A stretch of DNA of 58,519 bases from Caecitellus pseudoparvulus (lineage: Eukaryota > Protista > Bigyra: Bicosoecida): NCBI GenBank assembly GCA_965644315.1, contig CBFFRQ010000208.1, forward strand, positions 1-58,519. Direction: 5' to 3'. The notes under the pieces were generated by a model. It saw nothing but the letters and a program-made list of their open reading frames with translations, did not search any database and was not told the DNA's origin. Made by a program: the position numbers and the translations under genes. This document shows, in pieces, positions 38,867 to 56,564 of this stretch (its first letter is position 1; each line of letters opens with the position of its first letter).

Positions 38867-39285
38867 CAAAAAAAAGGGATGGGTGGGTGTTTAGTGTAAA
38901 ACACCACCCCCCGGTAGATACATACGTAATGCGTGGCTAAAGCCACTATATTTAATGGTTCATTTTATAGTAATTTAATAGTCAATAAAATATATATTAT
39001 TTAAGGTATATTTAAAAACAAGAAATAGTAAATTATAGGAAATATAAAAAAGTAATAAGTTAAAACATTATTTCCTATTTCCTTAATTTCTCTTTTTTTT
39101 ATGGATTTTTAAATATTATTATAATTTTCTTAAAATAGACTTTGAGAAAGAAAATATAAGATATAGGAAAAGTCTCTCTTAATCGCATGTGTTATACTTT
39201 TAGTGAATGAGTAAGTAAATATCTCTCTTAATTGCGGTGTGTGTCCCCTTCAAGAACAATTTAAACGCAATATTAAAAAATAAAT
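38867..39285 (+). repeat. Left terminal inverted repeat (419 bp)
   Basis: Base-by-base reverse-complement match to 56146-56564 with no mismatch; begins CAAAAAAAAGGGATGGGTGGG. Confidence 0.98.
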
Positions 39286-39303
39286 TATGAGACTATAATA
39301 ATC

Positions 39304-39546
39304 ATGCAAAAAAAGAACCTATCTAAAAAGTACTTAACCATGGATTTATCTTTATTAGCTTTTGATATTGAAGAGCAAAAGGAGAACATACAAAACCTAA
39401 AGAAAGAACTAAAAGAACTTCAAGCTGAAATGAAAGAAAAATTACAATTGCTAAGTAATAGAATGAAAACAGAAAATAAACAAGAATTAAAAGTAAAAGA
39501 GAAGATTTATAAAATTCAAACAGAGGATACATTAATTGTTGAATAA
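39304..39546 (+). CDS. Viral hypothetical coiled-coil protein (80 aa)
   Basis: ATG preceded by TATAATAATC; K/E-rich heptad pattern. Confidence 0.6.
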   Translation: MQKKNLSKKYLTMDLSLLAFDIEEQKENIQNLKKELKELQAEMKEKLQLLSNRMKTENKQELKVKEKIYKIQTEDTLIVE

Positions 39547-39571
39547 AATTTTTATCTATGTATAATAATAT

Positions 39572-40369
39572 ATGGATAAAGTTATAAACTATTTTAATGA
39601 CTTTTTTTTAGGTAATCCAGCAAATACACAAACATTACAAACATCAACAATTACAAAAAAAGATATTTATCAAGTACCTATACCATGGGACGCTTACCAA
39701 TGTGCTGTAGCGTGCAAATTAGTATATGATAGCCCTTCAACACGTCCATTTATTACAAGTAATTTAGTTTATAATGAAACATTAAGTAATAATAAAATGG
39801 CTGTATTTGTTGATATATCAGAAACACCAAAAGCATTTATTGTATTTAGAGGGACACAAACAGACGTAATTGATTTTATTGATGATTTAAGTATTATTGC
39901 AGGAGGTAGTTTTTCATTAAATTTATTAATTAATACAAAGAGACTAAATAAAATGCTAAATACTTTAAATGAAGTAGGTATTCAAAACATATATTTTACG
40001 GGTCATTCTTTAGGAGGTTTTGAAGCTGTGTATGCTTCAAATGAATATGGTATTCCTGCAATTGTATATAATATTGGTGCATCACCAACACAAGAACTAA
40101 GTAAAAGTATAAGGGAATTTAAAAATAAAGTTTTAGGCATTCGTAATAGCTATAAAGATATTTTTGATAGTAGTATAATTAAATCGTACATTATGGAAGG
40201 TGATTTAATAGCTGAAACAAGTAAAGTTTTAATTCCAAACACAACAGTCTTAAAACCAAAACCAGCACCAAAAAATTTAATAGAAGCCCATTCAATTGAT
40301 TTTATTTTAAAAAGTGTAGCACCAACAAATATTGAATTATATTATAGTAAACCATCAATTGGTTTTTAA
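39572..40369 (+). CDS. Viral class-3 lipase / alpha-beta hydrolase
   Basis: IVFRGT oxyanion motif, YFTGHSLGG nucleophile elbow, GDLI acid and C-terminal AHSI histidine. Confidence 0.9.
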   Translation: MDKVINYFNDFFLGNPANTQTLQTSTITKKDIYQVPIPWDAYQCAVACKLVYDSPSTRPFITSNLVYNETLSNNKMAVFVDISETPKAFIVFRGTQTDVIDFIDDLSIIAGGSFSLNLLINTKRLNKMLNTLNEVGIQNIYFTGHSLGGFEAVYASNEYGIPAIVYNIGASPTQELSKSIREFKNKVLGIRNSYKDIFDSSIIKSYIMEGDLIAETSKVLIPNTTVLKPKPAPKNLIEAHSIDFILKSVAPTNIELYYSKPSIGF

Positions 40370-40400
40370 GAAAGATTTTTTTATGAAAGTAATATATAAT

Positions 40401-40700
40401 ATGAATAAACAATATGATTATGAAGATCCATTTAATGGAAAAGAACCAACAAGAAAAGAGTATGAAGAATATATTGATCATTTAAAAGAAGTAAATCAAA
40501 AGCGTATTGAATTAATTAAAAGTTGTAGTGATTATTATTTGGTACAACACTTAGATTTTTCAGAAGATTACCTATCATATGAAGAATTTATAGAATATGA
40601 AAAAGAAATTGAAAATGAAAAAGACAAGACACAAAAGGAAGCAACAAAAATGAAAATGGATAATGTACATAAGGAACTATTAATGGCTACATCAAATTAA
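40401..40700 (+). CDS. Viral hypothetical acidic protein
   Basis: ORF with ATG preceded by AATATATAAT, as for neighbouring genes. Confidence 0.6.
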   Translation: MNKQYDYEDPFNGKEPTRKEYEEYIDHLKEVNQKRIELIKSCSDYYLVQHLDFSEDYLSYEEFIEYEKEIENEKDKTQKEATKMKMDNVHKELLMATSN

Positions 40701-40798
40701 ATATTTTATAGACTAATTTTATATTCTGTAAAATGATAATTGAGTATTTTTTATTTTTAATTTATGAAAGAGTATTAGAATTTTTGAATTATATAAAA

Positions 40799-41227
40799 AT
40801 GAAATTTTCAGTCTTTCAGTGTTCAGAGTTAAAAAGATTGAAAGAAACTGAAACTAAGACTGAAAATAAGTTTGAAAATGTAAAAGATGATTTTGTTGAT
40901 ATTCAAACTAAGGAAAATGTTCCAGTTATTTCAAATATAGAAACCAAATATTATTATAAACCAAAAAGGGAATTAAAGCAAAGAAAGCAATTATCTGAGA
41001 AGAAAAAACAGCAATTAATAAATGCACGAAAGAAGGCACAAGAAACATATAGAAGGAGAAGAGAACAAAAAGCAAGATTGCAGGAAGAAGAGCGAATAAA
41101 AAAATATGTAAAAATTATTAAACCAGAGATAATAAAGGAGGTTGAACAACCAGTAAAAAATAAGAGTATAAATGATGATTACATAATAGAGGATCTTTTG
41201 AAACAAATGGAGGAAGAAAATTATTGA
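40799..41227 (+). CDS. Viral hypothetical basic/coiled-coil protein
   Basis: KPKR...LSEKKKQQLINARKKAQE basic helix. Start chosen at the ATG preceded by TTATATAAAA (alternative start 40733). Confidence 0.6.
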   Translation: MKFSVFQCSELKRLKETETKTENKFENVKDDFVDIQTKENVPVISNIETKYYYKPKRELKQRKQLSEKKKQQLINARKKAQETYRRRREQKARLQEEERIKKYVKIIKPEIIKEVEQPVKNKSINDDYIIEDLLKQMEEENY

Positions 41228-41261
41228 AAGTATAAATTAATATTTTATTAGTCTATATTAT

Positions 41262-43330
41262 ATGAATCCATTTAATTTGACAGATGAGCAAATTTATAAC
41301 ATGCAGGAAGAGTTGAATGAGGAAAGAAATACACAATTTGTAAATCTAGGCTTATTGAATTATACAACTGATTTATTAGTACCTCAAGAAGCAGAAGAAG
41401 AGGAAGATATAAATTTAGATGAAGCAATTACAAATGCCGATTTAATACTACATAACAAACAGTTCTACAATGAAGGATGGGGTACAACAGATGAATCATT
41501 TGAAGAAGCTTTTTTTAATGAGCAAAAAAAGAAGAAGAAATACAAAATAAATTATTTAGAAGTTTAGGATTAACACCAGAAACTTTAGAGTTAGATGAAG
41601 AACAAAAAGAATTAAAAAATATATTAAATTATATTGATGCTTTTGGAAAACGTCATAACCTTTCACAAGCTGAAGTATTAAATTTAAGATCAAAAGCTAC
41701 TGAATCATTTTTAAAGAACAAATTTAATCCTTCATTCATAGCACAACAACAACCAATAAATCAAATGCAACAAGAAATAAACCAAAAATTCAGTGGTGCT
41801 TCAGACCAGCCACCAGCACAACCACCAACAGAACCACCAGCAGAACCACCAGCAGAACCACAAGCACCAGCACAAGGGGGAGCAGGTGAGAGCAAAGAAG
41901 GAGCGGGAACTGCCCAAATGATAGACACTAGTGGGGGTATTCATACAGTAGATAAACCAACAACAGAAGCACCAGCACCAAGACGACCTGAACCAGTGGC
42001 GGATACAGGGGCGGGGGCAGTAGTTCCAAACCAAGCAGAGCTAAGAGCAAACCGACTTAAATTATTAGAAAGAGTTCAACAAAGAGGAGATGAAGTAAGA
42101 AGAGAAAACAAAGATAAAGAATACCAAGATTTAGCCGATAAGATAGCACGAGAATTTATAGAAGCAATAAAAGGTGTATCTGGTGTTGCAAAAACAAATA
42201 TGATAAATATAATAAACAAATTAGTTGAAAGATCAAGAAATACACTTAATACAACAGGAACAGACAAAGCAATAACAGCCGATGATGTAGATATTATTAC
42301 ACAAAGTAGCACATCAAAATCTGCCGAAGTATTTGAAGGAATATTAGAAGGTATACCAGAATATACAAAACTAAACTTAGAAGATAAAGTAATTGTAATT
42401 TCTAAAATAGATTTTAATAAAATAGAAGAACAAAAACAAAAAGCAAGAGCGGATATTAAGTATGGTACATTACCAGATGCACAAAGAAATGAGGTTTATT
42501 ATTTGTACCTTGGACAATTACTAACTCTTGGGAAAATTTCATTAGATAGTATTTTAAAGCAAACAGAAGAAACTCCAGAGAAACTAGGGCAAAAAATGTA
42601 TACTGCTAGTGTTAATGCTAAGAAAACCCCAAAGTACTTATCAGTTTTGTATGATATATTAAACAGGTACTTAGCTGACAATAAAATAACGACTCCAACA
42701 GGTGGGCATAAGACACAAATGGGTTATTATGGAAAACAAATTTTTGATTTAATTAAAGTTAATGCGGAAAAAGTACCAAGGGATGCAGGCGAGAAGGCGA
42801 ATGCATATGCTAAACGAGTAATTGGAATACTAGCTAACCCCGAAAGCGGAATATATACAACAAGAAGAAGACCAGAACCAGCAGATGCACCAGCCCCAGC
42901 AGACGCACCAACCCCAGCAGATGCAGGAGATGAAGTAAGAGAATTAACAGATGCAGAAGATGGACAACTAAATAGATTAATTGATACATTTGAAGTAAGT
43001 AAAATGGGTGGAGCAAATCCAGATGAATTTATTGGACAGGAAATAGATTTATTATTATCAGGCTCACCAAGTAGAGATATGAAAGCTTTAATAAAATCAA
43101 TGGGCATAACAGAAGATACAATGAAAGACATAATTAAACGTAAGGCATACTTTATTTCACCTGATACAAGAAAGGAATATGATACTGTTTCACAAGAAGC
43201 AAAAGAAGGAAAAATAGATAATATTGTAAAAAGTTATGCTGGTAGAATAGAAGGAGGAGGTGGAGGACAAGCCCAAGGACGCAGAACACAAGCAAGAAAG
43301 GGGCGAATTTTAAAAGGAAGAGGTCAATAA
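41262..43330 (+). CDS. Large viral hypothetical protein (about 689 aa) split by a -1 frameshift at the A7 run 41524-41530
   Basis: The frame of ORF 41765-43330 is open back to 41522 (EEEIQNKLFRSLGL...) and overlaps the end of ORF 41262-41567; one extra A fuses them. Pro/Ala/Glu-rich linkers and a basic C-terminus. Confidence 0.7.
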
Positions 43331-43351
43331 AAAAATCTAAATAAATAGTAT

Positions 43352-44077
43352 ATGACAGAATTTAAAGTTTATACATTTGAAGAAGATGACATAACCAAAG
43401 ATAAAAAATATAAAAGTTTAATTCATCCAATTATAGGAGAACATCCACGAATGATATTAATAGGGCCCAGTCAAGCAGGAAAAACTCAAATGATACATAA
43501 CATATTATGGAATTGGTGTAAAGATTATTACACGAAATCAGAAGATAGCAGAATTATTGTAATCAGTGGAACAGATACAACAATAAGACATATATCAAAA
43601 ATGGCAGACAAACTAAAGCTAGATGAGGAGCAATTATTAATTATGGATTTTTTAGATTTTGAAGAATTAAAGAGTATTTACAAAGGATTAAATCCAAAAG
43701 TTCCACATATTTTTATTTTTGATGATATGGCATATAACCATGAAATGAATACAAATCATAGAACAAATTTTTTATCTGAATTGTTTGCAAGTGGTAGACA
43801 TAAGAACACAGGATGCATAATAGCAACACAAAAGTATCATTTTTTAGGACGTGATGTAAGAATGCTTAATTCAACTTTAGTTTCTATTTATTGGAATTGC
43901 TCAGATGGTGAAATATGGAAAGTATATGATGATAATTTTTCACAATATATAAATACAGATGATTTCAAAGACCTTGTATATGATAATTTGAATGAAAAGT
44001 ATAGTTTTATTTTATTGAACAAGAAAACAGGGAAGATTTATAATAACAAAATGAAAGAAATATATAGTAAGTTTTAA
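43352..44077 (+). CDS. A32-like (FtsK/HerA) genome-packaging ATPase
   Basis: Walker A GPSQAGKT, Walker B FIFDD, and SGRH...IIATQ motif. Confidence 0.95.
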   Translation: MTEFKVYTFEEDDITKDKKYKSLIHPIIGEHPRMILIGPSQAGKTQMIHNILWNWCKDYYTKSEDSRIIVISGTDTTIRHISKMADKLKLDEEQLLIMDFLDFEELKSIYKGLNPKVPHIFIFDDMAYNHEMNTNHRTNFLSELFASGRHKNTGCIIATQKYHFLGRDVRMLNSTLVSIYWNCSDGEIWKVYDDNFSQYINTDDFKDLVYDNLNEKYSFILLNKKTGKIYNNKMKEIYSKF

Positions 44078-44123
44078 TTAATTCTTTTAGTAAAATATTT
44101 TTTCTTTTATAAATATATATATA

Positions 44124-45452
44124 ATGGAAAAGAAAGATGAAATTTATCTATTAGGTGGTGTTTTGGATGGTGTAAGAACGAAAGCAAATAAACTTGTTAA
44201 TTCACGTTCAAGATTACAATATGATTTACAAGGAACACGAAGCGGATTTGGTAATTTAAATACTAATCTAAATGCTACAATTCAAACAGGCTCACATGTT
44301 CCACAAGCTGATACGCTATCATTAGATGGTGAATTTAAAGTTTCTGGAGGTCAAGCAGGTTCAAATGTAAAACTGTGTGGCGATATTTGCTCAGCTATTG
44401 AACAAATAAAAGTTTATGTAGGAGGTGCTTTAGTTGTAAATTTAAGCAAACATGCATATTTAGTAGCTATGATGAATAAAAAATTAAATATGAGTGCAGA
44501 AGAACTAGCAATTCATAACGTTAAGGCTCTTCAAAATGTTGTATTTGATGCAACAGGTGGATCAAGTTATAGTTTTTCAATTCCTATGTCTCTTTTTGGT
44601 TTAGATTTAAAGAAATTAATTCCTGTTGGCAACACTCCTATTAACATACAAATTACTCTTCAAAGTAAATTAGATATGTTATTTGTATCTGGTGGAACAG
44701 CTCCAACAGCACCAATAAAATATGAATTAAATAATGTAAAATTTAGTATGGAAGCATACCAATTAACAAATCTAGGTGCTCAACTGATGTTAAAAAAGGT
44801 TGATCCAACTTCAAATAGTTCAAGTATGAAAGGAATTGTAAATAGATTTTATGGTTATGATTTATCTTATCAAACCCTTCAACAAGCAACCACACATTCA
44901 CACCAATTTAATATTAAAAAGCGTGATATTATCAGCACACTTTTATTACCTGCTTATGTTACCATTCCCGCAGGAAGTTCTGATGCTAATGGATTTAATA
45001 CACTTAATACAGACCCAGTCAACGATTTTTTATGGACTACTAGCACAAATTTTAATTTTGTTTCAAATTATCGTATACAATTTACAGGAGAACCCTATGC
45101 AAATGTAAATGGTGCAAATGGTGAATCTCTATATACTGATCATTTTGAAGGAGTATTAAGAACCGCAAAACCAGAACTACACAGTAAGAGCTATGCTTCT
45201 GAATATTCAGATCAAATGAAAAGAAGTAATAATAAATGTCAAGTCCTTGGCGGTCTGTTCCTAAAAACACCAGAAGACAGCCAACATGCAACAGAAAATG
45301 GTTTTAATAGTTTAGTTGGTTCATCTGCTTTAGTAGTTGATTTTGATACATCTGCTGCACCTGCAAATTATGCAAATAAAAATTTAGTATGCTTAGTAAA
45401 ATTCAAAAGACAATTAGAACTAGCAGGTGGTGTAGCAAAAGTAGTTGAATAA
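44124..45452 (+). CDS. Major capsid protein (double jelly-roll, PLV-type)
   Basis: 442 aa, beta-rich, positioned between the ATPase and the penton. SAIEQIKVYVGGALV, FSIPMS, YELNNVKF and terminal LELAGGVAKV resemble PLV MCP patterns. Confidence 0.8.
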   Translation: MEKKDEIYLLGGVLDGVRTKANKLVNSRSRLQYDLQGTRSGFGNLNTNLNATIQTGSHVPQADTLSLDGEFKVSGGQAGSNVKLCGDICSAIEQIKVYVGGALVVNLSKHAYLVAMMNKKLNMSAEELAIHNVKALQNVVFDATGGSSYSFSIPMSLFGLDLKKLIPVGNTPINIQITLQSKLDMLFVSGGTAPTAPIKYELNNVKFSMEAYQLTNLGAQLMLKKVDPTSNSSSMKGIVNRFYGYDLSYQTLQQATTHSHQFNIKKRDIISTLLLPAYVTIPAGSSDANGFNTLNTDPVNDFLWTTSTNFNFVSNYRIQFTGEPYANVNGANGESLYTDHFEGVLRTAKPELHSKSYASEYSDQMKRSNNKCQVLGGLFLKTPEDSQHATENGFNSLVGSSALVVDFDTSAAPANYANKNLVCLVKFKRQLELAGGVAKVVE

Positions 45453-45464
45453 ATAAATATATAG

Positions 45465-45497
45465 TATTCTTTTATTTTATAAAACAATAAAAGAATA
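45465..45497. terminator. AT-rich hairpin after the MCP stop (putative 3'-end/polyadenylation signal)
   Basis: Perfect 12-bp stem TATTCTTTTATT / AATAAAAGAATA with a 9-nt loop, 12 nt after the stop codon. Confidence 0.6.
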
Positions 45498-45533
45498 ATT
45501 GAATTTTTATTTTCTCAATTAAGAATATATAAA

Positions 45534-46376
45534 ATGAGCTTAATTGACATCAATAATACTTTAGAAGTTTATATTAATAGTGCAATTGACAAAAGACCAA
45601 GTGATACATCTTTTGAATGGACAACTGAATTTAATACTACACCATTAGTTTTATCAGGTGGTGATTATATCCACCGTCTTATTGTTCAATCTGCATCCGT
45701 CCCTAATACATTTCCACAATTTAACCCAATTGATAGAGCTACATTTTCTATTGAAATAGAAAATGGAGCAACAACAGAACACACTATAAGCGAAAATTTA
45801 GTTTTTTCATCTACTGAGCAATTTGCAACATATTTACAAACAACAATAAATAATGCTGGTGGTAATGTTTCAGTATCACAAGAACAATCAACATTAAAAT
45901 TAAAAATTGTGAATAATGATACTGATTATGTTAAATTTTCAACAGTTGGTAATTATGGTAAGTTTTGGAATAAAATAGGTTTTACACAAGAACAGTATAA
46001 TGATGGTGAAGCATTAAAAATTGATCCATCCGATAATATGGAAGGTTTAAATTATCCAAATTTAATTAGTACCAGTAAAGTTTTTATTTGTATGAAAAAT
46101 GGTATTTTAAATAATTCATTCTTTGGTTCAGGATTAAACAGGCTTAAGTATCCAGTACTATTAAGTTTAAATATAGAATCAGGAACAGGTACATACTCAA
46201 GTTATGTATCAGATGATGAAATATTCTTTAATCATGATTTATTAGAAAACAATCAAATTAACCAAATGGATTTTATTTTATTAGATGATGAATATCAAGA
46301 GGTCAAATTGAAAGGTGGTTCAGTCAAATTATCTTTAATAATTAAGCAATATAGAACAGCCCAAGAACATTATTAA
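45534..46376 (+). CDS. Minor capsid (penton) protein, single jelly-roll
   Basis: N-terminal VYINSAIDKR, SASVPNTF and C-terminal INQMDFILLDDEYQEVKLKGGSVKLSLII match the PLV/virophage penton pattern; adjacent to the MCP. Confidence 0.8.
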   Translation: MSLIDINNTLEVYINSAIDKRPSDTSFEWTTEFNTTPLVLSGGDYIHRLIVQSASVPNTFPQFNPIDRATFSIEIENGATTEHTISENLVFSSTEQFATYLQTTINNAGGNVSVSQEQSTLKLKIVNNDTDYVKFSTVGNYGKFWNKIGFTQEQYNDGEALKIDPSDNMEGLNYPNLISTSKVFICMKNGILNNSFFGSGLNRLKYPVLLSLNIESGTGTYSSYVSDDEIFFNHDLLENNQINQMDFILLDDEYQEVKLKGGSVKLSLIIKQYRTAQEHY

Positions 46377-46424
46377 ATTGTACACTGTAGTTTATAAAAA
46401 TTAATTTTATACACTATATAATAT

Positions 46425-48965
46425 ATGGACGATACAAGATTATCATATTCTTTAAATTTAAATGGTTCAGGTGTTATTGAATCAGTAATAGAAGGATTGG
46501 AGAATGCAGAGAACATAACATTTAAAAATGTAACTATTCAAAATAATTTAGAAGTAGATGGTGAAGAAATCATTAATGAAGTTGAAACATTCAAAGTAAA
46601 AGATGCAATTGTTGAATTTAATAATGCTTCACCTGCTGTAAATGCTGATACTGGTTTTACTTCAAAAGAAGTTATAGGAGGAAATACAAGATACAAAGGT
46701 TTAATATTCAAAAGTGGTCAAGATGTAGGTATTGTTTATAATAATGCTTCAGCAGAGCCATTAACAACATTAGAACAACCTTATGATTTAGGCACGGTAA
46801 GAGTGCGAGATGCAAACAGCCAAAACGAACCAATTACAAAGCAACAATTTGATAATAATACGGTTAAATTATCAGGTAATCAAGATATTTCAGGGGTTAA
46901 AACATTTAATACTGATACACATTTACACAAATCAAAGTTCATTAATCCAAGCACACAAGACACAGACAGAGCAATATATTCAGATGAAAACGGCGATTTG
47001 GTATTTTTAAATGAATCATCATCAGGAAGCCACACATTTTATACTATGCAGGGAGGAACAGAAACATTAATGCTACGAATTAACGCACAAACGAATCAAA
47101 TTGACTGTTTAAAAGGGCTTTCAATGAATAATAATAGATTGGTATCTGTTGGTTCTCCTTCACTTCCTGGAGATGCAGCAACAAAACAATATGTAGATGA
47201 TAATGCACCAACTGATTATGTAAATTTAACAACAAATCAAACTGTAGGGGGTGAAAAAACTTTCACAAATACCCTGATTACTGAACAAGATATACAAACT
47301 AATAAAATGATATTAATTAGGACTGACGGCAGTGAAGCAAACTATCTTGAGTCAGAACCAACAACAAATATAATGCGTTATGTTAATGGTAGTGGAAATA
47401 ATAGACATTCATTTTTTAATAATAATTCTGGAACTGTAATAAATACATTTAATATAAATTATAATAGCGTTCAATCATTACTACCTTTTAATATGTCAAA
47501 TAATATTCTTTATGGTCTTGCTGAGCCTGTAGATGACGATGAAGCAGCAACAAAAAAATATGTAGATGATAATATACCAACTGATTATGTAAATTTAACA
47601 ACAAATCAAAATGTAGGGGGTGAAAAAACTTTCACAAATAAAATGATACTTGAGAATACATCAGCAGGAATGCAAAGCTTATTACGTTTTGAAACTGGAA
47701 GACCTTGGGAATTTAGAACTAATAATGCAGGGGCAGGAACATCTTTAGAATTGTACTCAACAGCACCAGAAAAAGGATTTAAAATAACTACACTTACAGA
47801 AACTTCAGGAGACCAAGACATAGCCCAATTTTCAGAAAGTAGCGTTTCAATATATACACAACAAAATTTAAATGATAATGACATTTTAGATATTGATGAA
47901 GCACAAGTAAAAAGATTAACATTAATCAAACCTGATGATGGGAATAAAAGCGTGGCAAATATTAGAATGGTTGGAAATTATATAAGTTATGATAGTTTAA
48001 TAAATAGCTCATTTGGAGGTCACAGATTTTACGTAAAAGACGGAGCAAACGATGTTATGGCTCTTCAAATTACAAGAAATCATATTGATACTAATTATAA
48101 ATTAAATATGGGGTATAATAAAATAGAACAACTGGCGGAACCTACAGCAAATACAGATGCAGCAACAAAAAATTATGTTGATAATGCTGTTGCTACTGCT
48201 GGTTCTTTCAATACTGATATAAATATGAATGATAATAACATTCAAAATATTAATGAAGCAGAAGCAAAAAAATTAATATTAATCCGCCCTAGTGATAACA
48301 ATAAAAACGTTTCAAGCATATATATGGAGTCAAATTATATTAGATATGATAATTTAGTTAATTCAGGAGCTGCTGGACACCGTTTTTATACTTTTAATGG
48401 TTTTACAAATGATTTGGCTTTTAGAATCGCAAATTCATTTATAGAAAGCAATTTTGAATTAAGAATGGGAAACCAAAAAATAGAAGAATTAGCAGAACCA
48501 GTAGTAGGCTCAGACGCAGCAACAAAAAATTATGTTGATAATATTGCTCGATCTTACTCTGCTACGGTTACGAGTTTAAGTATGAGTTGTACTAATTTAC
48601 CTATATATTCTTCATATAATGTTGGTGCTTTTAATTTAACAAAGACAGGACATTATATGATTGATTATACTATTAATATAAAACAAAACGAACCGACATT
48701 AACTGATAGACATTTTACGCTAATTCTAACTGCTCCCGGGTCTGTTGGTAATCTATCAGCACCTGGTGGAGCAAGAGGAATTGATTTATCAAGGACTGGT
48801 ATGAGCAATTCATCTACGGCTACTGGTAGTATTAATCTAAAATGGATTGTTGAATATACCTCAACAGGAATTAAGCAACTTACAATGGATATAGGTTCAA
48901 GAAGTGGTAGTGGAACACCATTTGAATTTTATGGAAATGCTATAATATCTAGAGTAGTAGTATAA
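46425..48965 (+). CDS. Putative virion fibre/spike protein with repeated modules
   Basis: Four (D/E)AATKxYVD neck motifs and three NQxxxGxKTF motifs, typical of trimeric fibres/adhesins; directly follows the penton. Confidence 0.75.
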   Translation: MDDTRLSYSLNLNGSGVIESVIEGLENAENITFKNVTIQNNLEVDGEEIINEVETFKVKDAIVEFNNASPAVNADTGFTSKEVIGGNTRYKGLIFKSGQDVGIVYNNASAEPLTTLEQPYDLGTVRVRDANSQNEPITKQQFDNNTVKLSGNQDISGVKTFNTDTHLHKSKFINPSTQDTDRAIYSDENGDLVFLNESSSGSHTFYTMQGGTETLMLRINAQTNQIDCLKGLSMNNNRLVSVGSPSLPGDAATKQYVDDNAPTDYVNLTTNQTVGGEKTFTNTLITEQDIQTNKMILIRTDGSEANYLESEPTTNIMRYVNGSGNNRHSFFNNNSGTVINTFNINYNSVQSLLPFNMSNNILYGLAEPVDDDEAATKKYVDDNIPTDYVNLTTNQNVGGEKTFTNKMILENTSAGMQSLLRFETGRPWEFRTNNAGAGTSLELYSTAPEKGFKITTLTETSGDQDIAQFSESSVSIYTQQNLNDNDILDIDEAQVKRLTLIKPDDGNKSVANIRMVGNYISYDSLINSSFGGHRFYVKDGANDVMALQITRNHIDTNYKLNMGYNKIEQLAEPTANTDAATKNYVDNAVATAGSFNTDINMNDNNIQNINEAEAKKLILIRPSDNNKNVSSIYMESNYIRYDNLVNSGAAGHRFYTFNGFTNDLAFRIANSFIESNFELRMGNQKIEELAEPVVGSDAATKNYVDNIARSYSATVTSLSMSCTNLPIYSSYNVGAFNLTKTGHYMIDYTINIKQNEPTLTDRHFTLILTAPGSVGNLSAPGGARGIDLSRTGMSNSSTATGSINLKWIVEYTSTGIKQLTMDIGSRSGSGTPFEFYGNAIISRVVV
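47175..47640 (+). repeat. 97-bp direct repeat pair within the fibre gene (47175-47271 and 47544-47640)
   Basis: Four mismatches over 97 bp by manual alignment. Confidence 0.9.
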
Positions 48966-49002
48966 ATTTAAATATAAAATAAAATTTGTAGTATAAGTAT
49001 AT

Positions 49003-49287
49003 ATGATTCTAGATATAATACCATCAGCAAGAAAGGATAAAAGATTTACAGCTATATTTAAAGATGGTTCAAAAACTTCATTTGGACAAAAGGAAGGTAG
49101 CACATTTATTGACCACAAGGACAAAGAGAAAAGAAAGAATTATAGAGCCAGACATGAAAGAGATTTAGAAACTAAAGACCCAAAAAGAGCAGGATACTTA
49201 TCATATTATATTTTATGGGGTGATGAGACAAACTTAAAAGATGCAATGAAAGCATATAATAAGCAATTCTTCTTTAATAAAAAATGA
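49003..49287 (+). CDS. Tlr6F-like (DUF5754-like) small conserved viral protein
   Basis: S.RK.K.F.A.F.DG..T.FG......DHKD..KR..Y.ARH......P..AG.LS..ILW pattern known from NCLDVs, PLVs and virophages; family name recalled from memory. Confidence 0.7.
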   Translation: MILDIIPSARKDKRFTAIFKDGSKTSFGQKEGSTFIDHKDKEKRKNYRARHERDLETKDPKRAGYLSYYILWGDETNLKDAMKAYNKQFFFNKK

Positions 49288-49333
49288 TTATATTTATGGA
49301 AATATAGTTTTTTTCTCTTACTATAATATATTT

Positions 49334-49897
49334 ATGGAAATGGAAAATGCATTAATTTTAGGTGCTGGTTTGGTATCAATTGGTGCTAAAACCGCTTATT
49401 CATGTTTTGGAAAATCAAAAAAGAAGAAATGGTCTAAAATTAGATTTGGTGCTATTGTTATGAGTTGCATGACTGGAAAATCTACACTGGCAAACAAACT
49501 TAAAGCAGATTCAGGTGTCTATTTAATTGATGTTGGCCAATCTGTCGCTGTTGATGGTGATACAAACGCAGATATTAATTATTTAATGAAAGCTAAGGAA
49601 TATGTAGATAAAGTAAAAAAGGATTTGAAAGATTACAAACTAATTTTGATTTGTTCCTCTATTGGTGAAGCAAAGTATCTTGGTGTTGATGAATCAAACA
49701 TTGCTGTTCTGACACCTTCAAACTCGCTTTTTAAATCAATATGTGAAGGTCGTAATACTGCAAATGTAGCAGAAATGGAACGTAAAAGAATGGAACTAAT
49801 TAGTGCTTGTAGTGAGGACGTACTAAATATTTTTGATAGTTATGATACTCTTTATTCTGTCATTCGCACCACGTTCAAATTGCGTAATAAATTCTGA
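49334..49897 (+). CDS. Atypical P-loop (kinase-like) protein with N-terminal hydrophobic segment
   Basis: FGAIVMSCMTGKSTLANKL...YLIDV; N-terminal ALILGAGLVSIGA followed by KSKKKK. Confidence 0.6.
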   Translation: MEMENALILGAGLVSIGAKTAYSCFGKSKKKKWSKIRFGAIVMSCMTGKSTLANKLKADSGVYLIDVGQSVAVDGDTNADINYLMKAKEYVDKVKKDLKDYKLILICSSIGEAKYLGVDESNIAVLTPSNSLFKSICEGRNTANVAEMERKRMELISACSEDVLNIFDSYDTLYSVIRTTFKLRNKF

Positions 49898-49924
49898 AAA
49901 GGACTTTCAAAGAACTTTTATTTA

Positions 49925-49957
49925 AAACAAAATATAAATAATTATATTTTGCTTCTT
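49925..49957. terminator. Hairpin between convergent genes (copy 1)
   Basis: Stem CAAAATATAA / TTATATTTTG with loop ATAA. Confidence 0.6.
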
Positions 49958-49971
49958 AAAAAACTATATTA

Positions 49972-50445
49972 TTATATTATCATTGTTATTTTTTTCATTT
50001 TAGTCCATTTATCAAAATCTAATTTATCTTGCCTTTCAATTCTCTTTCTTCTAGCTTCTCTATCCCTTCCTTTTCTCCTATATTTCTTTTTCAATCTTTC
50101 ATAAATATCTTTCCAATGTTCTAATGTAATTTCCTTTCTTAGTCTGTATGTGTATAGTCTGTTGTACTCTCTCCTAAAGTCTTTATCATCTTCTTCAGAT
50201 AATCGCTTAATTCTACATCTTATTAAATTACAATCACTCTTGTACTCATCTATTTTTACGCAATCATGATAGACATTAAATAAATGTTGTAAGTTCTCTT
50301 GTCTTGTTCTCAAACTCATATCAATTCTATCTTCTAATGGAGAATCTTTTACTTTATAAAGAATGTAATCAAACATATTCATACATGTTTCAAAGTCTTT
50401 TTTAAATTCTGTCATTGAATAAACAGTTTTTGAAAATTCTGTCAT
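49972..50445 (-). CDS. Viral hypothetical protein (157 aa)
   Basis: ORF with AATATATAA before the ATG; charged helical composition; duplicated MTEF at the N-terminus. Confidence 0.6.
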   Translation of the reverse strand: MTEFSKTVYSMTEFKKDFETCMNMFDYILYKVKDSPLEDRIDMSLRTRQENLQHLFNVYHDCVKIDEYKSDCNLIRCRIKRLSEEDDKDFRREYNRLYTYRLRKEITLEHWKDIYERLKKKYRRKGRDREARRKRIERQDKLDFDKWTKMKKITMII

Positions 50446-50465
50446 TTATATATTACTTATATAAT

Positions 50466-50645
50466 ATGATTTCAAGATCAAAGCAAAGGAGAAAACACAA
50501 TGGCATCTGGTATTCCATTATGACGAAAGCCATTCAAGAAAAAAGAGAAAAAATCATTGAACAGAATACAAAAGATCTCATTGAAACTTTTGGAATAAAA
50601 ATAATTATTGATGTATTGGATGATCAAAATAAAATGAAAGAATAG
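50466..50645 (+). CDS. Viral hypothetical protein (59 aa)
   Basis: ATG preceded by TTATATAAT; divergent from the 50445 gene with only 20 bp between the starts; followed by a hairpin. Confidence 0.5.
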   Translation: MISRSKQRRKHNGIWYSIMTKAIQEKREKIIEQNTKDLIETFGIKIIIDVLDDQNKMKE

Positions 50646-50651
50646 TACTTG

Positions 50652-50684
50652 AAACAAAATATAAATAATTATGTTTTGCTTCTT
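50652..50684. terminator. Hairpin between convergent genes (copy 2)
   Basis: 33-bp near-identical copy of 49925-49957; one A>G change gives a U-G pair. Confidence 0.6.
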
Positions 50685-50700
50685 GAAATAATAAATTGAG

Positions 50701-51009
50701 TTATTTTTCTGATTCACCAATAAGTTTTAATCTCTCATTAATTGCATCATTAATTTTTTCAAATCCTGATTTAGTAAACTTATAAACAAGTGATACTCCA
50801 ATATCTGGAAAATTTAGTATTACATTATAGCTTGCTGAATCTACCTCTACACAGCTCTTAAAATCATATGCATGAACGTTAGTTATAAATAAGGGAGTTG
50901 TGAATGTTAGAATTAATTCTTTATCTTCAAATCTGATAGATGTGTTCTGTCTGGGACAAGTCAATAGCTTTCCATTTAAAGTACAATATCTCGCATTAAC
51001 AATTTTCAT
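50701..51009 (-). CDS. Viral hypothetical protein (102 aa)
   Basis: Beta-rich ORF preceded by the shared AAATNACTTAAA motif. Confidence 0.6.
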   Translation of the reverse strand: MKIVNARYCTLNGKLLTCPRQNTSIRFEDKELILTFTTPLFITNVHAYDFKSCVEVDSASYNVILNFPDIGVSLVYKFTKSGFEKINDAINERLKLIGESEK

Positions 51010-51024
51010 TTTAGTTTATTCCTT

Positions 51025-51051
51025 AAAACGCATTTTATGTTTAAGTTATTT
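51025..51051 (-). promoter_or_regulatory. Shared upstream motif, copy before ORF 51009
   Basis: Minus strand AAATAACTTAAACATAAAATGCGTTTT. Confidence 0.5.
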
Positions 51052-51068
51052 TATTAATTAATTATATA

Positions 51069-52097
51069 ATGAGCAAAATAAAAGAGTTAATATCTGAATT
51101 GGGAATTGATGAGACTTTTACTAAACCACAACCTAAAGAAACTCAGTTTACAAAAGTTAAAGGGGTAATCTATCCTGAAGAAGATTATAATTTTCAAGCT
51201 GATTTATTAGAGCTACCAAAGACCAAAGAAGGATTTAAATATTTATTAGTTGTTGTTGATTTATGGACTAATGAATTTGATATTGAACCACTAAAAACTA
51301 AAAGACCAAATACTGTTTTAGGTGCATTTAAAAAGATGATTAAACGAAAACATATTAATTTACCAGAAGCAAGTATAAGAACAGATGGAGGAGGAGAGTT
51401 TAAAGGTGATTTTGCCAAATTTCTATTTGATGAATCAATTTTAAAAAAAACAGCAATGAAAGGAAGACACCAGCAAATGGCAAATGTGGAAAGATTAAAT
51501 AAAACACTTGGAAGACTATTTAATGGATACATGAACAAAAAAGAAGAAGAAACTAATAAACCTTATAGAGAATGGACAGATATTTTATCTCAGGTAAGAA
51601 CTAAATTAAACAAAATAAGAAAAGTTGAACCAAACAAATTTAAATTTGCAAAAATTAAGATGATCTCTCCAAAATTTAAAATAGGTGATCTTGTATATTA
51701 TAAGCTGACACCATCTCAGGCCGAAGATTCATTAGGAAATCCCGTTCAAGGAGGATTTAGAACAGGAGATAGAAGATTTAGTAAGAAAGCTAGAAAAATT
51801 AAACAAATACTGGCATATAAAGGAAATGTTCCAGTACGATATCAATTAAATTATTTACCAAATGTATCATTTGCAGAATCAGAACTTAAACTAGCCAGTG
51901 GTGAAGAAACATTTGAAGTCAGAGAAATAATAGATGATAGGAGAGGACAATATAAAGTATGGTGGAAAGGTTTTCCTAAGAAAAATGCAACTTGGGAAAA
52001 CAAAATAAGAATTAAAAAACAAGTTCCAGATATAGTAAAGGAATATGAAGAAAAAAGAAGAATCAATCCAAAAAGTAAATTGTTTGTGAGCTTTTAA
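51069..52097 (+). CDS. Retroviral-type (rve) DDE integrase with C-terminal chromodomain
   Basis: FQADLLEL...YLLVVVDLWT, IRTDGGGEF and ANVERLNKTL (D-D-E); KFKIGDLV; chromodomain FEVREIID...YKVWWKGFP...ATWE. Confidence 0.95.
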   Translation: MSKIKELISELGIDETFTKPQPKETQFTKVKGVIYPEEDYNFQADLLELPKTKEGFKYLLVVVDLWTNEFDIEPLKTKRPNTVLGAFKKMIKRKHINLPEASIRTDGGGEFKGDFAKFLFDESILKKTAMKGRHQQMANVERLNKTLGRLFNGYMNKKEEETNKPYREWTDILSQVRTKLNKIRKVEPNKFKFAKIKMISPKFKIGDLVYYKLTPSQAEDSLGNPVQGGFRTGDRRFSKKARKIKQILAYKGNVPVRYQLNYLPNVSFAESELKLASGEETFEVREIIDDRRGQYKVWWKGFPKKNATWENKIRIKKQVPDIVKEYEEKRRINPKSKLFVSF

Positions 52098-53301
52098 TAT
52101 CTATTGTCTTATTGTGGTACTTATGATCCTGACAAATAAACTTTGTTATTACTTCATCATGATTCTTTTTACATATGAAACCATCAATATATATCCTTAC
52201 TACATCATCAAGAATTGGAGCTATTAAATTTGACATCTTAGCTCTACAAGTGGCAGGTAGAAAATATCCCATTCTTGCAGTTGTATATAAGAATATACGC
52301 TCTCTTTTTACTGTATAATACACACGTTCACCTTTCTTGTTTACATAAGACTTACTAAGAATTGGTAAAATATTTTTTTGTTCCTCTTCGGTTTTGCTTT
52401 GAATACTTGATAGTTTTCTATAAATTGGCCGATGTTTAATTTTTTGATATCCAAACATATTATTTAACATAAACTTAATAAGAGGGTTCTTTGGTAATTT
52501 ATCATTTGCTTTCATTAGTATATCTTGATACCATCCAAAAATAATATGTGAATCTACTAATGTATCATTATCATATATTAAAGCATTTGGTTTACCATCC
52601 TGTATAATTTCCCATTTAAGATTTAGGCCGACCCAATCACGAAAAAATTTCAGTTTATTCAATGTAAAATGATCATAATAATTTTTCTTAGAAAAGCCAA
52701 TAAGAAATTTTGCTCTTGGATCCGATGAAACAACTTTAATATGATAATATCCATATTCAAACTTTTCGGGTGTCTCTGTTAATGTTTCAAATCTTCCTCT
52801 TTTTACTGGAAACTTAAAATTTCTTTTTCTACATCCATAAGTCATTGAATAAAATTTCTTTTGATCATAAGCATATACTTTACCTTTGTATGGTGTACCT
52901 GCAATTAAACCTGAATCGTATGATTGATCCATAAATTTATATTCTTCATATGTCATATGTTCATAGGATTTCAAATTCTTCTTATCTTTGCGTGTATTGC
53001 TCAGTAAAGTATTCATTAGTGAGGTATTACATCCATCCTTTTTAAAGAATCTTAGATCCAGTCCTTTAAATAACATTCTTTTAGGATTTCGTGTACTTGG
53101 TATATTGGATAAGTATTTTTCTAATTCATTCGAATATTCTTGAATCTTTTCATAATACTCTATGAGTCCGTTTTCATCTGCATCTATTCCAAAGCTCTTT
53201 AACATCTCATACCCATTTGCTTTTTTATAGCTCTTCTTTACCTTTCCTCCATCATATGAAAAATAAGTTCTTGATACTGAGTCTTTATAATATACTATCA
53301 T
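52063..53301 (-). CDS. Short, divergent family-B DNA polymerase (pPolB-related)
   Basis: Motif A VYAYDQKKFYS, motif B IKFMLNNMFG, motif C-like VVRIYIDGF; only 412 aa. Confidence 0.72.
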   Translation of the reverse strand: MIVYYKDSVSRTYFSYDGGKVKKSYKKANGYEMLKSFGIDADENGLIEYYEKIQEYSNELEKYLSNIPSTRNPKRMLFKGLDLRFFKKDGCNTSLMNTLLSNTRKDKKNLKSYEHMTYEEYKFMDQSYDSGLIAGTPYKGKVYAYDQKKFYSMTYGCRKRNFKFPVKRGRFETLTETPEKFEYGYYHIKVVSSDPRAKFLIGFSKKNYYDHFTLNKLKFFRDWVGLNLKWEIIQDGKPNALIYDNDTLVDSHIIFGWYQDILMKANDKLPKNPLIKFMLNNMFGYQKIKHRPIYRKLSSIQSKTEEEQKNILPILSKSYVNKKGERVYYTVKRERIFLYTTARMGYFLPATCRAKMSNLIAPILDDVVRIYIDGFICKKNHDEVITKFICQDHKYHNKTIDIKSSQTIYFLD

Positions 53302-53310
53302 ATATTATAA

Positions 53311-53337
53311 AATACTAATCTTATCTTTAAGTCATTT
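53311..53337 (-). promoter_or_regulatory. Shared upstream motif, copy before PolB
   Basis: Minus strand AAATGACTTAAAGATAAGATTAGTATT, then TTATAATAT-ATG. Confidence 0.6.
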
Positions 53338-53344
53338 TATTAAT

Positions 53345-53689
53345 TTATTCTTCCACTAACCATGAAATAGTTAATGATCTTACAGATTGAAACTTTGATT
53401 GTACTTTTACCTTACCATTTAGGTACTCATCTAAATTATCTAATGTTTCGGCAATAGTTGATCCATACCCTTTAATATTCATAATGCCATCTTTACGAAG
53501 TCCAAGTACAACAAGTTCATCAACATCATATTTTTTATCTATCTTTGGGACAATATGACCATATAGTTCTTTGATGGTATCAAAATTTATTTCTTCTCCA
53601 TCCTTTGCTTCAATATACATATCATGTTGAGTATGTCCTCCTACCTTCTCTTCATTTCTTCTTACAATATACTTATTCATATTTACCAT
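53345..53689 (-). CDS. Viral hypothetical protein (114 aa) between helicase and PolB
   Basis: Clean ORF with its own copy of the shared upstream motif. Confidence 0.7.
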   Translation of the reverse strand: MVNMNKYIVRRNEEKVGGHTQHDMYIEAKDGEEINFDTIKELYGHIVPKIDKKYDVDELVVLGLRKDGIMNIKGYGSTIAETLDNLDEYLNGKVKVQSKFQSVRSLTISWLVEE

Positions 53690-53704
53690 ATCTATTATAT
53701 CGTA

Positions 53705-53731
53705 AATACGTAATTTATCCTTAGGTCATTT
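53705..53731 (-). promoter_or_regulatory. Shared upstream motif, copy before ORF 53689
   Basis: Minus strand AAATGACCTAAGGATAAATTACGTATT...TATAATAGAT-ATG. Confidence 0.6.
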
Positions 53732-53733
53732 AA

Positions 53734-55437
53734 TTAAAAAATTCCTAAATTATCATTTTCTTTAGTTATTAATTTTCCGTTCTTACTTGCTTTTGTTGCT
53801 TTCTTTTTGTATTCTTTAATTTCCTTTTCTGTTTTCTCTTTCTTTGCTTTTGCTTTGGCTTCCTTTTCTTTCTTGAATATTTTCTTGTTTTCAGATAATT
53901 TAACTTTTTTTGGTTTTGATTTTTTTGATTCTACTGTTATTGGTTTTGGTTTCTTCCCTTCTAAAATTGACATAAACTCTTTGAACTTTTCAGGATGTTT
54001 TGCATACAAAACTTTAATATAATCCATGTCATCAACTGATACCTCTTCTTCTGGTGCTTCATCATCTTCTATTTCTGGGTCATACCATCTTTTACTTATA
54101 AATATTTTGCGTAATGTTTCAACAGGTACAATAAATTTTCTCTTTGTTGAACCATTTACAGATACAGTAGTTTTAATAATACCTATCTTTTTTAAATCTT
54201 TATGTAATCTATGAAGGGTCATTTTAAATTTTGCGTTCGTATTGTATTCATCCAATAATTGCTTGCATTCTATATCCATATCAGCATTATTAAATATAAA
54301 TTCATCTTTGATATACTTGTATAAAGGAGGAAGAGCAGATATAATTTTTTCATCCCTTGTTCTTGAATTTGGCATAATATCAAAATTAAAATCTTTGTTT
54401 TCTTCATAAAGCTTTCTCATATGATTAAAATATGCAGGTATTACCCCCTTACAATTCATAGCCTTAATGACACTTTGGAAATACTTAAAATCACCTTTAC
54501 GATGGTCTGATACATCGGGGCATATATACCGCTCTTTGTTTGATTGACTCAAATTAATTGATCCTTCAATATTTGTCGTTATAATTATGTTAAATGTATT
54601 TGTTTGAGTGTATCCTACACTGTACATATCACGGCAATCAAATTTATCTTCAGTTATTAATCCTTTCAGTTTATCTTGTATAAGTAAATTTCCTCTTAGT
54701 TCTGGTAGCTCATCAATATTTACTAATACAACCCCTTCTAATGGTTTTGTGTACTTTGTTATAGTTTCGGTTGAGGATGTTTTAAGCATTCTTTCGCCAA
54801 GCACACGATCTAAGAAGTTTAAGTATATTCCTTTTCCTGTTCTCTCTTCTGATAACATAAAGATTGCTTTTCGCACCTTTACACCAGCAATTGAAAAAGC
54901 AAAAAATAAACGTAAATATTCAAACATAGCAATATTTCCCCCACATAGTACTTCCTTAATATGATTATCAATAACTCCAATTTCTTTTAAAAAATCTTTA
55001 TCTTTTATGTCTTTACATTCACTTAAATCAAAAGGTAAAGGTTTAACCATATTTAAATATTTTTGAGTTAAGGCTTTACCCTTAATATTTCTTGTAATGG
55101 ATACAATATCATCATCTGTATCTGGAAATATACCATATTGTACATTATTGGAACAATCACAAAATTCAGAACTTACCATATAATCAAACAAATTAAATTT
55201 TGTTTGTCTATTTGATTTTAAATTGTTCTCTTCAATATAATCTTGATTAGTTAAATCTTTTGGGATATATTGTCTTAAGTCTTTTTGCTTGAAGTTATCA
55301 TATTTCCCAGTTTGCACATTCTTAAAAAAATAACTATCTGTAGTCTTAAAAAAGTATTTTTGCACATACTGTTTGACATCTTCTATTTTGTTTTCATTAA
55401 GTAAATTCTTAATTGTCATTACACTAAATACGACCAT
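53734..55437 (-). CDS. Superfamily-3 (D5/NrS-1-like) helicase
   Basis: Walker A variant FMLSEERTGKG, Walker B LVNIDE, KLKGLIT and motif C FNIIITTN; lysine-rich tail. Confidence 0.88.
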   Translation of the reverse strand: MVVFSVMTIKNLLNENKIEDVKQYVQKYFFKTTDSYFFKNVQTGKYDNFKQKDLRQYIPKDLTNQDYIEENNLKSNRQTKFNLFDYMVSSEFCDCSNNVQYGIFPDTDDDIVSITRNIKGKALTQKYLNMVKPLPFDLSECKDIKDKDFLKEIGVIDNHIKEVLCGGNIAMFEYLRLFFAFSIAGVKVRKAIFMLSEERTGKGIYLNFLDRVLGERMLKTSSTETITKYTKPLEGVVLVNIDELPELRGNLLIQDKLKGLITEDKFDCRDMYSVGYTQTNTFNIIITTNIEGSINLSQSNKERYICPDVSDHRKGDFKYFQSVIKAMNCKGVIPAYFNHMRKLYEENKDFNFDIMPNSRTRDEKIISALPPLYKYIKDEFIFNNADMDIECKQLLDEYNTNAKFKMTLHRLHKDLKKIGIIKTTVSVNGSTKRKFIVPVETLRKIFISKRWYDPEIEDDEAPEEEVSVDDMDYIKVLYAKHPEKFKEFMSILEGKKPKPITVESKKSKPKKVKLSENKKIFKKEKEAKAKAKKEKTEKEIKEYKKKATKASKNGKLITKENDNLGIF

Positions 55438-55453
55438 TTGCTATTATAATTAC

Positions 55454-55480
55454 AATACGAAATTTATCTTTAAGTAATTT
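55454..55480 (-). promoter_or_regulatory. Shared upstream motif, copy before helicase
   Basis: Minus strand AAATTACTTAAAGATAAATTTCGTATT...TATAATAGCAA-ATG. Confidence 0.6.
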
Positions 55481-55569
55481 TTTTATTTTTTAAATTCTCC
55501 TCATAATTATTATGAAGATAATTCTATAAAACTCAAAGGGGGAAAACACTAAACCCCTATACTATACTC

Positions 55570-55959
55570 TTATACTTTATTTTTTAGTATTGCGTTCATG
55601 TATCTACTACGTGAATTTTTAGTTCCACTTTTCATATGTCTACTAATATACTCATGTATAATGAACCATAACCAATTAAATTGATCATCAGTTAAGCAAT
55701 TATATCCATAAAAATGCTTTTTCTTTTCTAACTTAAACGCTACAAATGAAAAATTGTCTTTACTCACACGATGTTCACCATATGTTGTATTAAATTCATT
55801 CCTTTCATCATATAAATTAATATTTTCACTTTGTTGAAAATAATCATTTAGTAAATCTGAAGATAAAACTTTTCTTAAATTGTAATAAAGGTCTATATTT
55901 AACTTAATATGATTTAAATATTCTTCATTACTTTCTTTTTTATGAGTAAAATATAACAT
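55570..55959 (-). CDS. Viral hypothetical protein (129 aa)
   Basis: Clean ORF adjacent to the right TIR; no recognised motif. Confidence 0.6.
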   Translation of the reverse strand: MLYFTHKKESNEEYLNHIKLNIDLYYNLRKVLSSDLLNDYFQQSENINLYDERNEFNTTYGEHRVSKDNFSFVAFKLEKKKHFYGYNCLTDDQFNWLWFIIHEYISRHMKSGTKNSRSRYMNAILKNKV

Positions 55960-56145
55960 TATGTGTATATAAAAATCTTCATTTTTTAGGTCTTCTACAT
56001 CTTAAATTTCAATAATAAAATTCCTTACAAAAGATTTACTACTACTAAATGTTAGTTCCTTTTTATAGTATGATTTTCTATTTTTCATAGAAATTTTCGG
56101 TTTCATACTCATATATATTACTAATACATAATTCACTTTTATGTT

Positions 56146-56564
56146 ATTTATTTTTTAATATTGCGTTTAAATTGTTCTTGAAGGGGACACACACCGCAAT
56201 TAAGAGAGATATTTACTTACTCATTCACTAAAAGTATAACACATGCGATTAAGAGAGACTTTTCCTATATCTTATATTTTCTTTCTCAAAGTCTATTTTA
56301 AGAAAATTATAATAATATTTAAAAATCCATAAAAAAAAGAGAAATTAAGGAAATAGGAAATAATGTTTTAACTTATTACTTTTTTATATTTCCTATAATT
56401 TACTATTTCTTGTTTTTAAATATACCTTAAATAATATATATTTTATTGACTATTAAATTACTATAAAATGAACCATTAAATATAGTGGCTTTAGCCACGC
56501 ATTACGTATGTATCTACCGGGGGGTGGTGTTTTACACTAAACACCCACCCATCCCTTTTTTTTG
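56146..56564 (-). repeat. Right terminal inverted repeat (419 bp)
   Basis: Exact reverse complement of 38867-39285. Confidence 0.98.

Follow-up and report, generated by a model that had tools for sequence, protein, structure and literature searches.

Protein-primed family B DNA polymerases (pPolBs) of the mavirus type are the closest described systems to the one reported here. As outlined in PMC11161782, the mavirus enzyme follows a TP-vOTU-PALM plan, in which a terminal-protein (TP) domain and a vOTU protease domain precede the palm, and it has lost the exonuclease beside a superfamily 3 (SF3) helicase; the fused terminal-protein and protease domains were assigned there by structure models and not tested. 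A second report names the 'palm-retaining truncated pPolB' PRT-pPolB and ties DUF5906 to pMVRE group 1, and the terms 'terminal protein' and 'vOTU' are absent from its main text (PMC13215967). Here we analysed a 58,519-nt stretch of Caecitellus pseudoparvulus DNA (contig CBFFRQ010000208.1), called the window throughout, which carries an endogenous Polinton-like virus (PLV) with a 412-aa polymerase gene. We think it rather probable that this protein is a mavirus-type protein-primed polymerase without the terminal-protein and protease domains, likely an active replicase and likely primed by the 114-aa product of the adjacent gene. The polymerase and the genes upstream of it are arranged as follows:

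52063..53301, minus strand: polymerase open reading frame (ORF), 412 aa, identified by ORF call, Atlas features and profiles of its relatives
52846..52869, minus strand: motif A, YDQKKFYS, residues 145-152; Y145, D146 and Y151 invariant in 11/11 aligned sequences
52450..52476, minus strand: motif B, KFMLNNMFG, residues 276-284; K276 and G284 invariant in 11/11, N280 in 10/11
52180..52197, minus strand: motif C, RIYIDG, residues 369-374; D373 and G374 invariant in 11/11
53302..53344, minus strand: spacer with a common upstream motif (repeat family D5), also present in the related locus L002
53345..53689, minus strand: 114-aa gene, candidate stand-alone terminal (priming) protein
53734..55437, minus strand: SF3 helicase, 567 aa (Pfam DUF5906, E 8.5e-10; PHROG 1156 over residues 168-457)

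Identity of the polymerase

The initial annotation had placed a 412-aa polymerase gene with three motifs here, and the ORF call and the motif positions confirmed it. Motifs A, B and C occur in the order of protein-primed family B, starting at residues 145, 276 and 369, and the two essential aspartates, D146 and D373, which the initial annotation took to be retained, are kept in every aligned sequence. Direct sequence searches of Pfam, PHROG and PDB with the 412-aa protein gave no match, and PDB sequence searches with P0001, A1, A4 and A5 returned nothing significant. Its nearest Atlas cluster (408 aa, 91 members; score 0.96) had 206 of 256 features in common with it; PF03175 is found on 11% of these members, which are mostly from viruses, Preplasmiviricota being the commonest. 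The second feature match was a 380-aa cluster. Polymerase forms of about 400 aa are not rare, as Atlas clusters of 52 and 91 members indicate.

Distant relatives were collected by scanning IMG/VR twice by motif, which yielded 17 and then 9 loci. A profile of the close homologues kept 3/17 and 7/9 of these, giving 7 distinct proteins (E 1e-14 to 2e-34), and the remaining 14 and 2 loci were unrelated and were removed. The alignments exclude L024 and L025, which duplicate L023 and L016 nearly or exactly, and P0002, which is 97% identical to the query. We found that a profile made from the seven distant relatives alone recovered the window polymerase with E 5e-43 among 865 sequences, and that two of the seven passed the 25.8-bit cut-off of PF03175 (DNA_pol_B_2), L018 with 34.1 bits and L008 with 43.5 bits, indicating that the similarity is beyond chance. 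Because the scans selected motif C and AR..F, the distant rows were bound in part to conserve D373-G374; neither motif A nor the motif B lysine figured in the scan patterns.

The motifs of the relatives read YD[FVIK]xSxYP, KxxxNxLWG and [RY]xHTDG. They usually have HTDG where DTDS would stand, and W or F where motif B would have Y, indicating that the missing first aspartate of motif C and the motif B aromatic swap are family traits. The same aspartate is described as absent in mavirus, pipolin and other active polymerases (PMC11161782). The lysine at the serine position of motif A recurs in full-length L023 (YDINKQYT), and the threonine-to-isoleucine change in motif C is limited to the window polymerase and its two closest rows (3/11). 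The earlier description of the motifs as rewired was thus overstated.

These motifs bear on the possibility that the protein has lost catalysis and persists in some other role, which we regard as very unlikely. Lysine and serine occupy the usual Ser and Pro positions of motif A, isoleucine replaces threonine in motif C, the clade evolves fast, and no palm was seen in a low-confidence structure model (pLDDT 52, with residues 104-172 and 335-412 below 50), all of which would fit such a role. However, the protein retains its two aspartates along with the motif A and B residues Tyr, Lys, Asn and Gly, motif A changes of a similar kind occur in full-length L023 and L008, and Pfam matched no other polymerase or primase family among the 19 element ORFs. 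A 'repurposed fold', one of two options in the initial annotation, is therefore not favoured. The same model showed alpha/beta and hairpin elements at the TPR1- and TPR2-sized inserts, and fold searches with it were uninformative and gave no structural match.

Next to PRD1, the polymerase is short at both ends. Ahead of motif A there are 144 residues, compared with 218 in PRD1; no exonuclease domain with Exo I-III was found in them, and D17 and E120 are the only invariant acidic residues of this region in the 11-row alignment. After motif C there are 37 residues, and 36-56 in 11/11 aligned sequences, compared with 121 in PRD1. The inserts between the motifs, by contrast, are of TPR1 and TPR2 size (131 and 96 residues versus 121 and 89 in PRD1). 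The family profile met the PRD1 polymerase at motifs A and B only. Judged by its sequence, the 412-aa protein has no room for an exonuclease or a thumb, and a thumb-sized region appears to be absent across the whole family, on which a literature search found no paper. The short C-terminus is not peculiar to the short-polymerase clade because all 6 full-length relatives share it. The domain comparison supports the 'proofreading-less minimal polymerase' of the earlier reading, and the protein is probably an intact, active polymerase of the known exonuclease-less class.

The same reductions could mean that the polymerase only initiates and that a helper giant-virus or host polymerase elongates. 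By analogy with phi29, from which the roles of residues are likewise taken, loss of the exonuclease and thumb should lower processivity, and the short-polymerase clade stands on a long branch. Such elements are also described as co-occurring with giant viruses (PMC13215967). We nevertheless consider this improbable, since the polymerase still has a TPR2-sized insert, the element retains a dedicated SF3 helicase that shares the upstream motif, and the full-length relatives have the short C-terminus too. Trees of the 11 relatives and PRD1 were unresolved. An exonuclease remnant and a palm with a separate SF3 helicase, as in the published mavirus plan, were found here; fused N-terminal TP and vOTU domains were not, the alignment starting at residue 242-247 of the fused relatives.

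Conservation of the short form and the candidate primer protein

Four homologues, of 412, 404, 425 and 445 aa and 97-40% identity, came from a search of 1,432 candidates (226-721 aa) that was blind to forms above 779 aa; a profile search added none beyond these four. All close homologues open with M-x-[VI]-Y-Y-K. The 404-aa form occurs in two metagenome loci that share the order helicase, 113-aa gene, polymerase and convergent integrase. An in-frame stop sits two codons 5' of the polymerase ATG, leaving no possible upstream extension, and the clean ATG with its own upstream motif, noted earlier, was confirmed. Extension upstream, or a frameshift fusion with the 114-aa gene, was rejected on account of this stop, the 43-nt motif-bearing spacer and the same layout in L002.

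In pairwise comparison of the window with L002, dN/dS was lowest in the small gene (0.12), with 0.14 in the integrase and 0.18 in the polymerase. Four sequencing runs gave 107 variants, of which 40 were shown; 37 of these fell within the two ORFs, where 17/23 and 12/14 were silent, and none of the 40 was an indel inside either ORF. By these measures, the polymerase is under purifying selection.

Six of the seven distant relatives are full-length (618-719 aa), with an N-terminal domain of about 120 aa followed by a Cys...His domain. We label these TP and vOTU by position, size and Cys/His motifs as set out in PMC11161782, with no library match. Residue 2 of the window polymerase aligns to residue 242 of L023 and residue 5 to residue 247 of L016, so that the alignment begins just past the His of the Cys/His domain. 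A profile of this domain, allowed matches up to E 5, found none among the 186 ORFs of the window, and a profile of the TP-type domain gave no match among the window ORFs either. The earlier remark that no exonuclease or terminal-protein domain was obvious was borne out. Virophage capsid genes are present at the loci of two full-length relatives.

The existence of relatives of 618-719 aa is what a decayed, truncated copy of a longer gene would predict, and the earlier reading had named longer homologues as a warning of this. They exist, and yet four homologues down to about 41% identity share start and length, dN/dS is low, the terminal repeats of the element are perfect and no ORF indel was seen among the variants shown. 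The chance that the gene is such a copy is therefore negligible, and the conserved, selected short form argues for a lasting domain loss, in keeping with the earlier view that it is not a decayed fragment.

The seventh relative, L018, is a stand-alone polymerase of 405 aa preceded by an SF3 helicase and by 89-aa and 100-aa ORFs; the 100-aa ORF is weakly similar to fused terminal-protein domains. Holding the window clade and L018 together, as under a single split event, gave a p-AU of 0.41. This second stand-alone polymerase (L018 3146-4719) has canonical motifs, and by its name the contig was binned with a giant-virus genome.

The initial annotation had left priming unexplained, and the 114-aa neighbour offers a candidate answer, not a proven one. 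Its candidate linking residues would be Tyr89 or Ser98: Y89 (with G92 nearby) and S98 recur in each of the 3 full-length sequences aligned, a small set. Several results weigh against a primer role. The protein showed no sequence similarity to fused terminal-protein domains, in a comparison where the positive controls were also weak, its structure gave matches at background level only, and an Atlas search gave no usable match. Complex prediction with the polymerase was uninformative, at 0.37, 0.00 and 0.00 in three runs. The polymerase could instead be active with the 114-aa protein as an accessory, in DNA binding or helicase loading, and priming could be supplied by another gene of the element, by a folded-back end, or by a primase from the host or a giant virus. 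We hold this to be unlikely, because the polymerase keeps its TPR1- and TPR2-sized inserts, the small gene matches the lost domain in size and place and remains beside the polymerase through a helicase swap, and L018 has a similar ORF that does resemble the fused domains weakly.

The swap is suggested by the helicases, which are 25% alike (window 53734-55437, L002 549-2318) next to polymerase, small gene and integrase at 73-84%; the helicase was probably exchanged inside the module, and the last six residues are identical in the two. A 114-aa-type gene thus stays with the polymerase where the helicase differs. The motif A(C/T)(C/T)TAA(A/G)GATA lies 31-38 nt 5' of the ATG of the polymerase, the 114-aa gene and the helicase (copies near 53332, 53726 and 55475). 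In 200 shuffles its count had a mean of 0.76 and a maximum of 4, a figure that is not an independent test because the pattern was drawn from the same sites. A 33-nt form of the motif (window 53703-53737) occurs twice, 1,848 nt apart, on a 4,383-nt contig of run X6 that has little else in common with the window, which marks it as a divergent element sharing this regulatory signal.

In the mechanism we propose for a 114-aa primer, the excised linear genome would be copied from both terminal repeats. A Tyr or Ser in the 114-aa protein would receive the first nucleotide from the polymerase, which would then extend this primer without proofreading, with the SF3 helicase unwinding ahead, and the rve integrase would put copies back into host DNA. 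With the primer protein made separately, the protease would have become dispensable and then been lost. A helper giant virus is plausibly needed, by analogy with mavirus.

The integrated element and its surroundings

The element shows the terminal inverted repeats, packaging ATPase, integrase and GC contrast of a Polinton-like virus:

38867..56564, no strand: whole endogenous Polinton-like virus, 17,698 bp, 28% GC in flanks of 62-64% GC
38867..39285, plus strand: left terminal inverted repeat, 419 nt, 100% complementary to the right arm
56146..56564, minus strand: right terminal inverted repeat, 419 nt, perfect match to the left arm
43352..44077, plus strand: A32-like packaging ATPase (Pfam Pox_A32, E 7.7e-6, above cut-off)
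44124..45452, plus strand: probable major capsid protein, 442 aa, of PLV size, assigned by position and size
45534..46376, plus strand: probable minor capsid protein, 280 aa, assigned by position; L002 homologue, E 5.8e-39
51069..52097, plus strand: rve integrase with chromodomain, convergent with the polymerase (rve E 3.9e-7, below cut-off; Chromo E 2.8e-7)

Pfam searches of the 19 element ORFs identified the A32-like ATPase, the rve integrase and chromodomain, the DUF5906 SF3 helicase and a lipase-like protein. The 442-aa capsid candidate had no match in Pfam, PHROG or PDB, and its L002 homologue (E 2.5e-27) occupies the same place in the gene order; the 280-aa candidate had no Pfam match. 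The capsid module (window 43352-46376, L002 10082-12944) is far more diverged than the replication module, with the ATPase 38% and the capsid candidate 26% alike and the integrase 84% identical, which suggests module exchange. The element also encodes a lipase-like alpha/beta hydrolase (39572-40369) with counterparts in L002 and L016, an 846-aa fibre-like protein (46425-48965) with internal repeats spaced 357-369 nt that is strongly different in other strains, and a 94-aa DUF5754 protein (49003-49287; Pfam E 2.5e-15). At 52050 three of four runs have an extra A, and the integrase and polymerase overlap by 35 nt in the window and 16 nt in L002; a slip of one base within a run of A may account for the window integrase tail and its 35-nt overlap (52044-52097).

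Long and largely uninterrupted ORFs of eukaryote-like character fill the flanks, some of them resembling kinase or EF-hand genes on visual inspection, and the host is likely a protist. No exact 4-9 nt target-site duplication was found at the element ends (38865-38867, 56564-56570). In contigs of other runs, what follows the left flank and what comes before the right flank do not resemble the window's opposite flank, and the two flanks may not form a simple empty site. A host C2H2 zinc-finger array with an 87-nt repeat (56576-57742) begins about 12 nt from the right end, and the insertion may have hit the front of this gene. A long host tandem repeat at 27400-30200 has strong GC skew and is open in several frames.

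The replication module was found partly in 17/20 listed sequencing runs and with at least half of its words in 8 runs, from 9 studies. Several of these are marine metagenomes, the window itself may derive from at least one of the runs, and none of the listed runs is an RNA run. A viral-contig search with the polymerase, its alignment, the 114-aa protein, the capsid candidate, P0005 and the integrase returned nothing, and neither did a search of prokaryote genomes for related loci. Searches by tblastn gave rows of E 0.2-0.9 against phages and none against plasmids, and Rfam gave no match in the window.

Comparison with known systems

We see about an even chance that this is the smallest protein-primed replication machine yet in a eukaryotic virus, consisting of a 412-aa polymerase stripped of exonuclease, thumb, protease and fused primer domain, a free 114-aa primer and a swappable SF3 helicase, and that it represents a return to the tectivirus two-gene layout, independent of adenoviruses and possibly repeated among mavirus-type polymerases. 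In the literature, chiefly open-access main texts, we found no description of a polymerase of the mavirus type that lacks vOTU and has its terminal protein encoded apart. Exonuclease loss itself is already known, and the locus shows a further reduced and probably split layout of that class. A free primer protein with the protease absent is the form that the published fused-domain model predicts. The two small proteins would suit test-tube study of protein priming by an exonuclease-less, thumb-less polymerase, and they offer a further route to the split layout used in arguments on adenovirus origin.

Compared with mavirus-type pPolBs, the window polymerase lacks about 240 N-terminal residues (terminal protein and vOTU), its likely primer protein is a separate gene, and our searches of the element turned up no vOTU-like ORF. 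No virophage Pfam match was obtained for the capsid genes here, in contrast to those of L016 and L022. EMALE02 of Cafeteria burkhardae is, by description, similar in being a low-GC element in a GC-rich protist with mavirus-like replication and PLV-like capsid genes; in that description its polymerase is not said to be short or split (PMC8547959). The pPolB-S1H (Tlr1-like helicase) of PLVs and transpovirons also pairs an exonuclease-less palm with a helicase, but the helicase there is SF1 and fused, and the terminal-protein and vOTU domains are kept, as outlined in PMC11161782.

In adenoviruses (pTP and Pol) and the Stylophora coral polinton the terminal protein is split from the polymerase, as is probably the case here. 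According to the same outline, however, the polymerase keeps vOTU in adenoviruses (dead) and in the coral polinton (active), and adenoviruses also keep the exonuclease, whereas both are gone here and the candidate primer protein has only 114 aa (PMC11161782). In the tectivirus PRD1 (NC_001421) the P8 terminal-protein gene lies directly upstream of the P1 polymerase gene on the same strand, as the candidate primer gene does in our element. Its primer protein has 259 aa and its 553-aa polymerase carries both exonuclease and thumb, unlike here, and the two-gene layout described above is most likely a secondary return to a tectivirus-like state.
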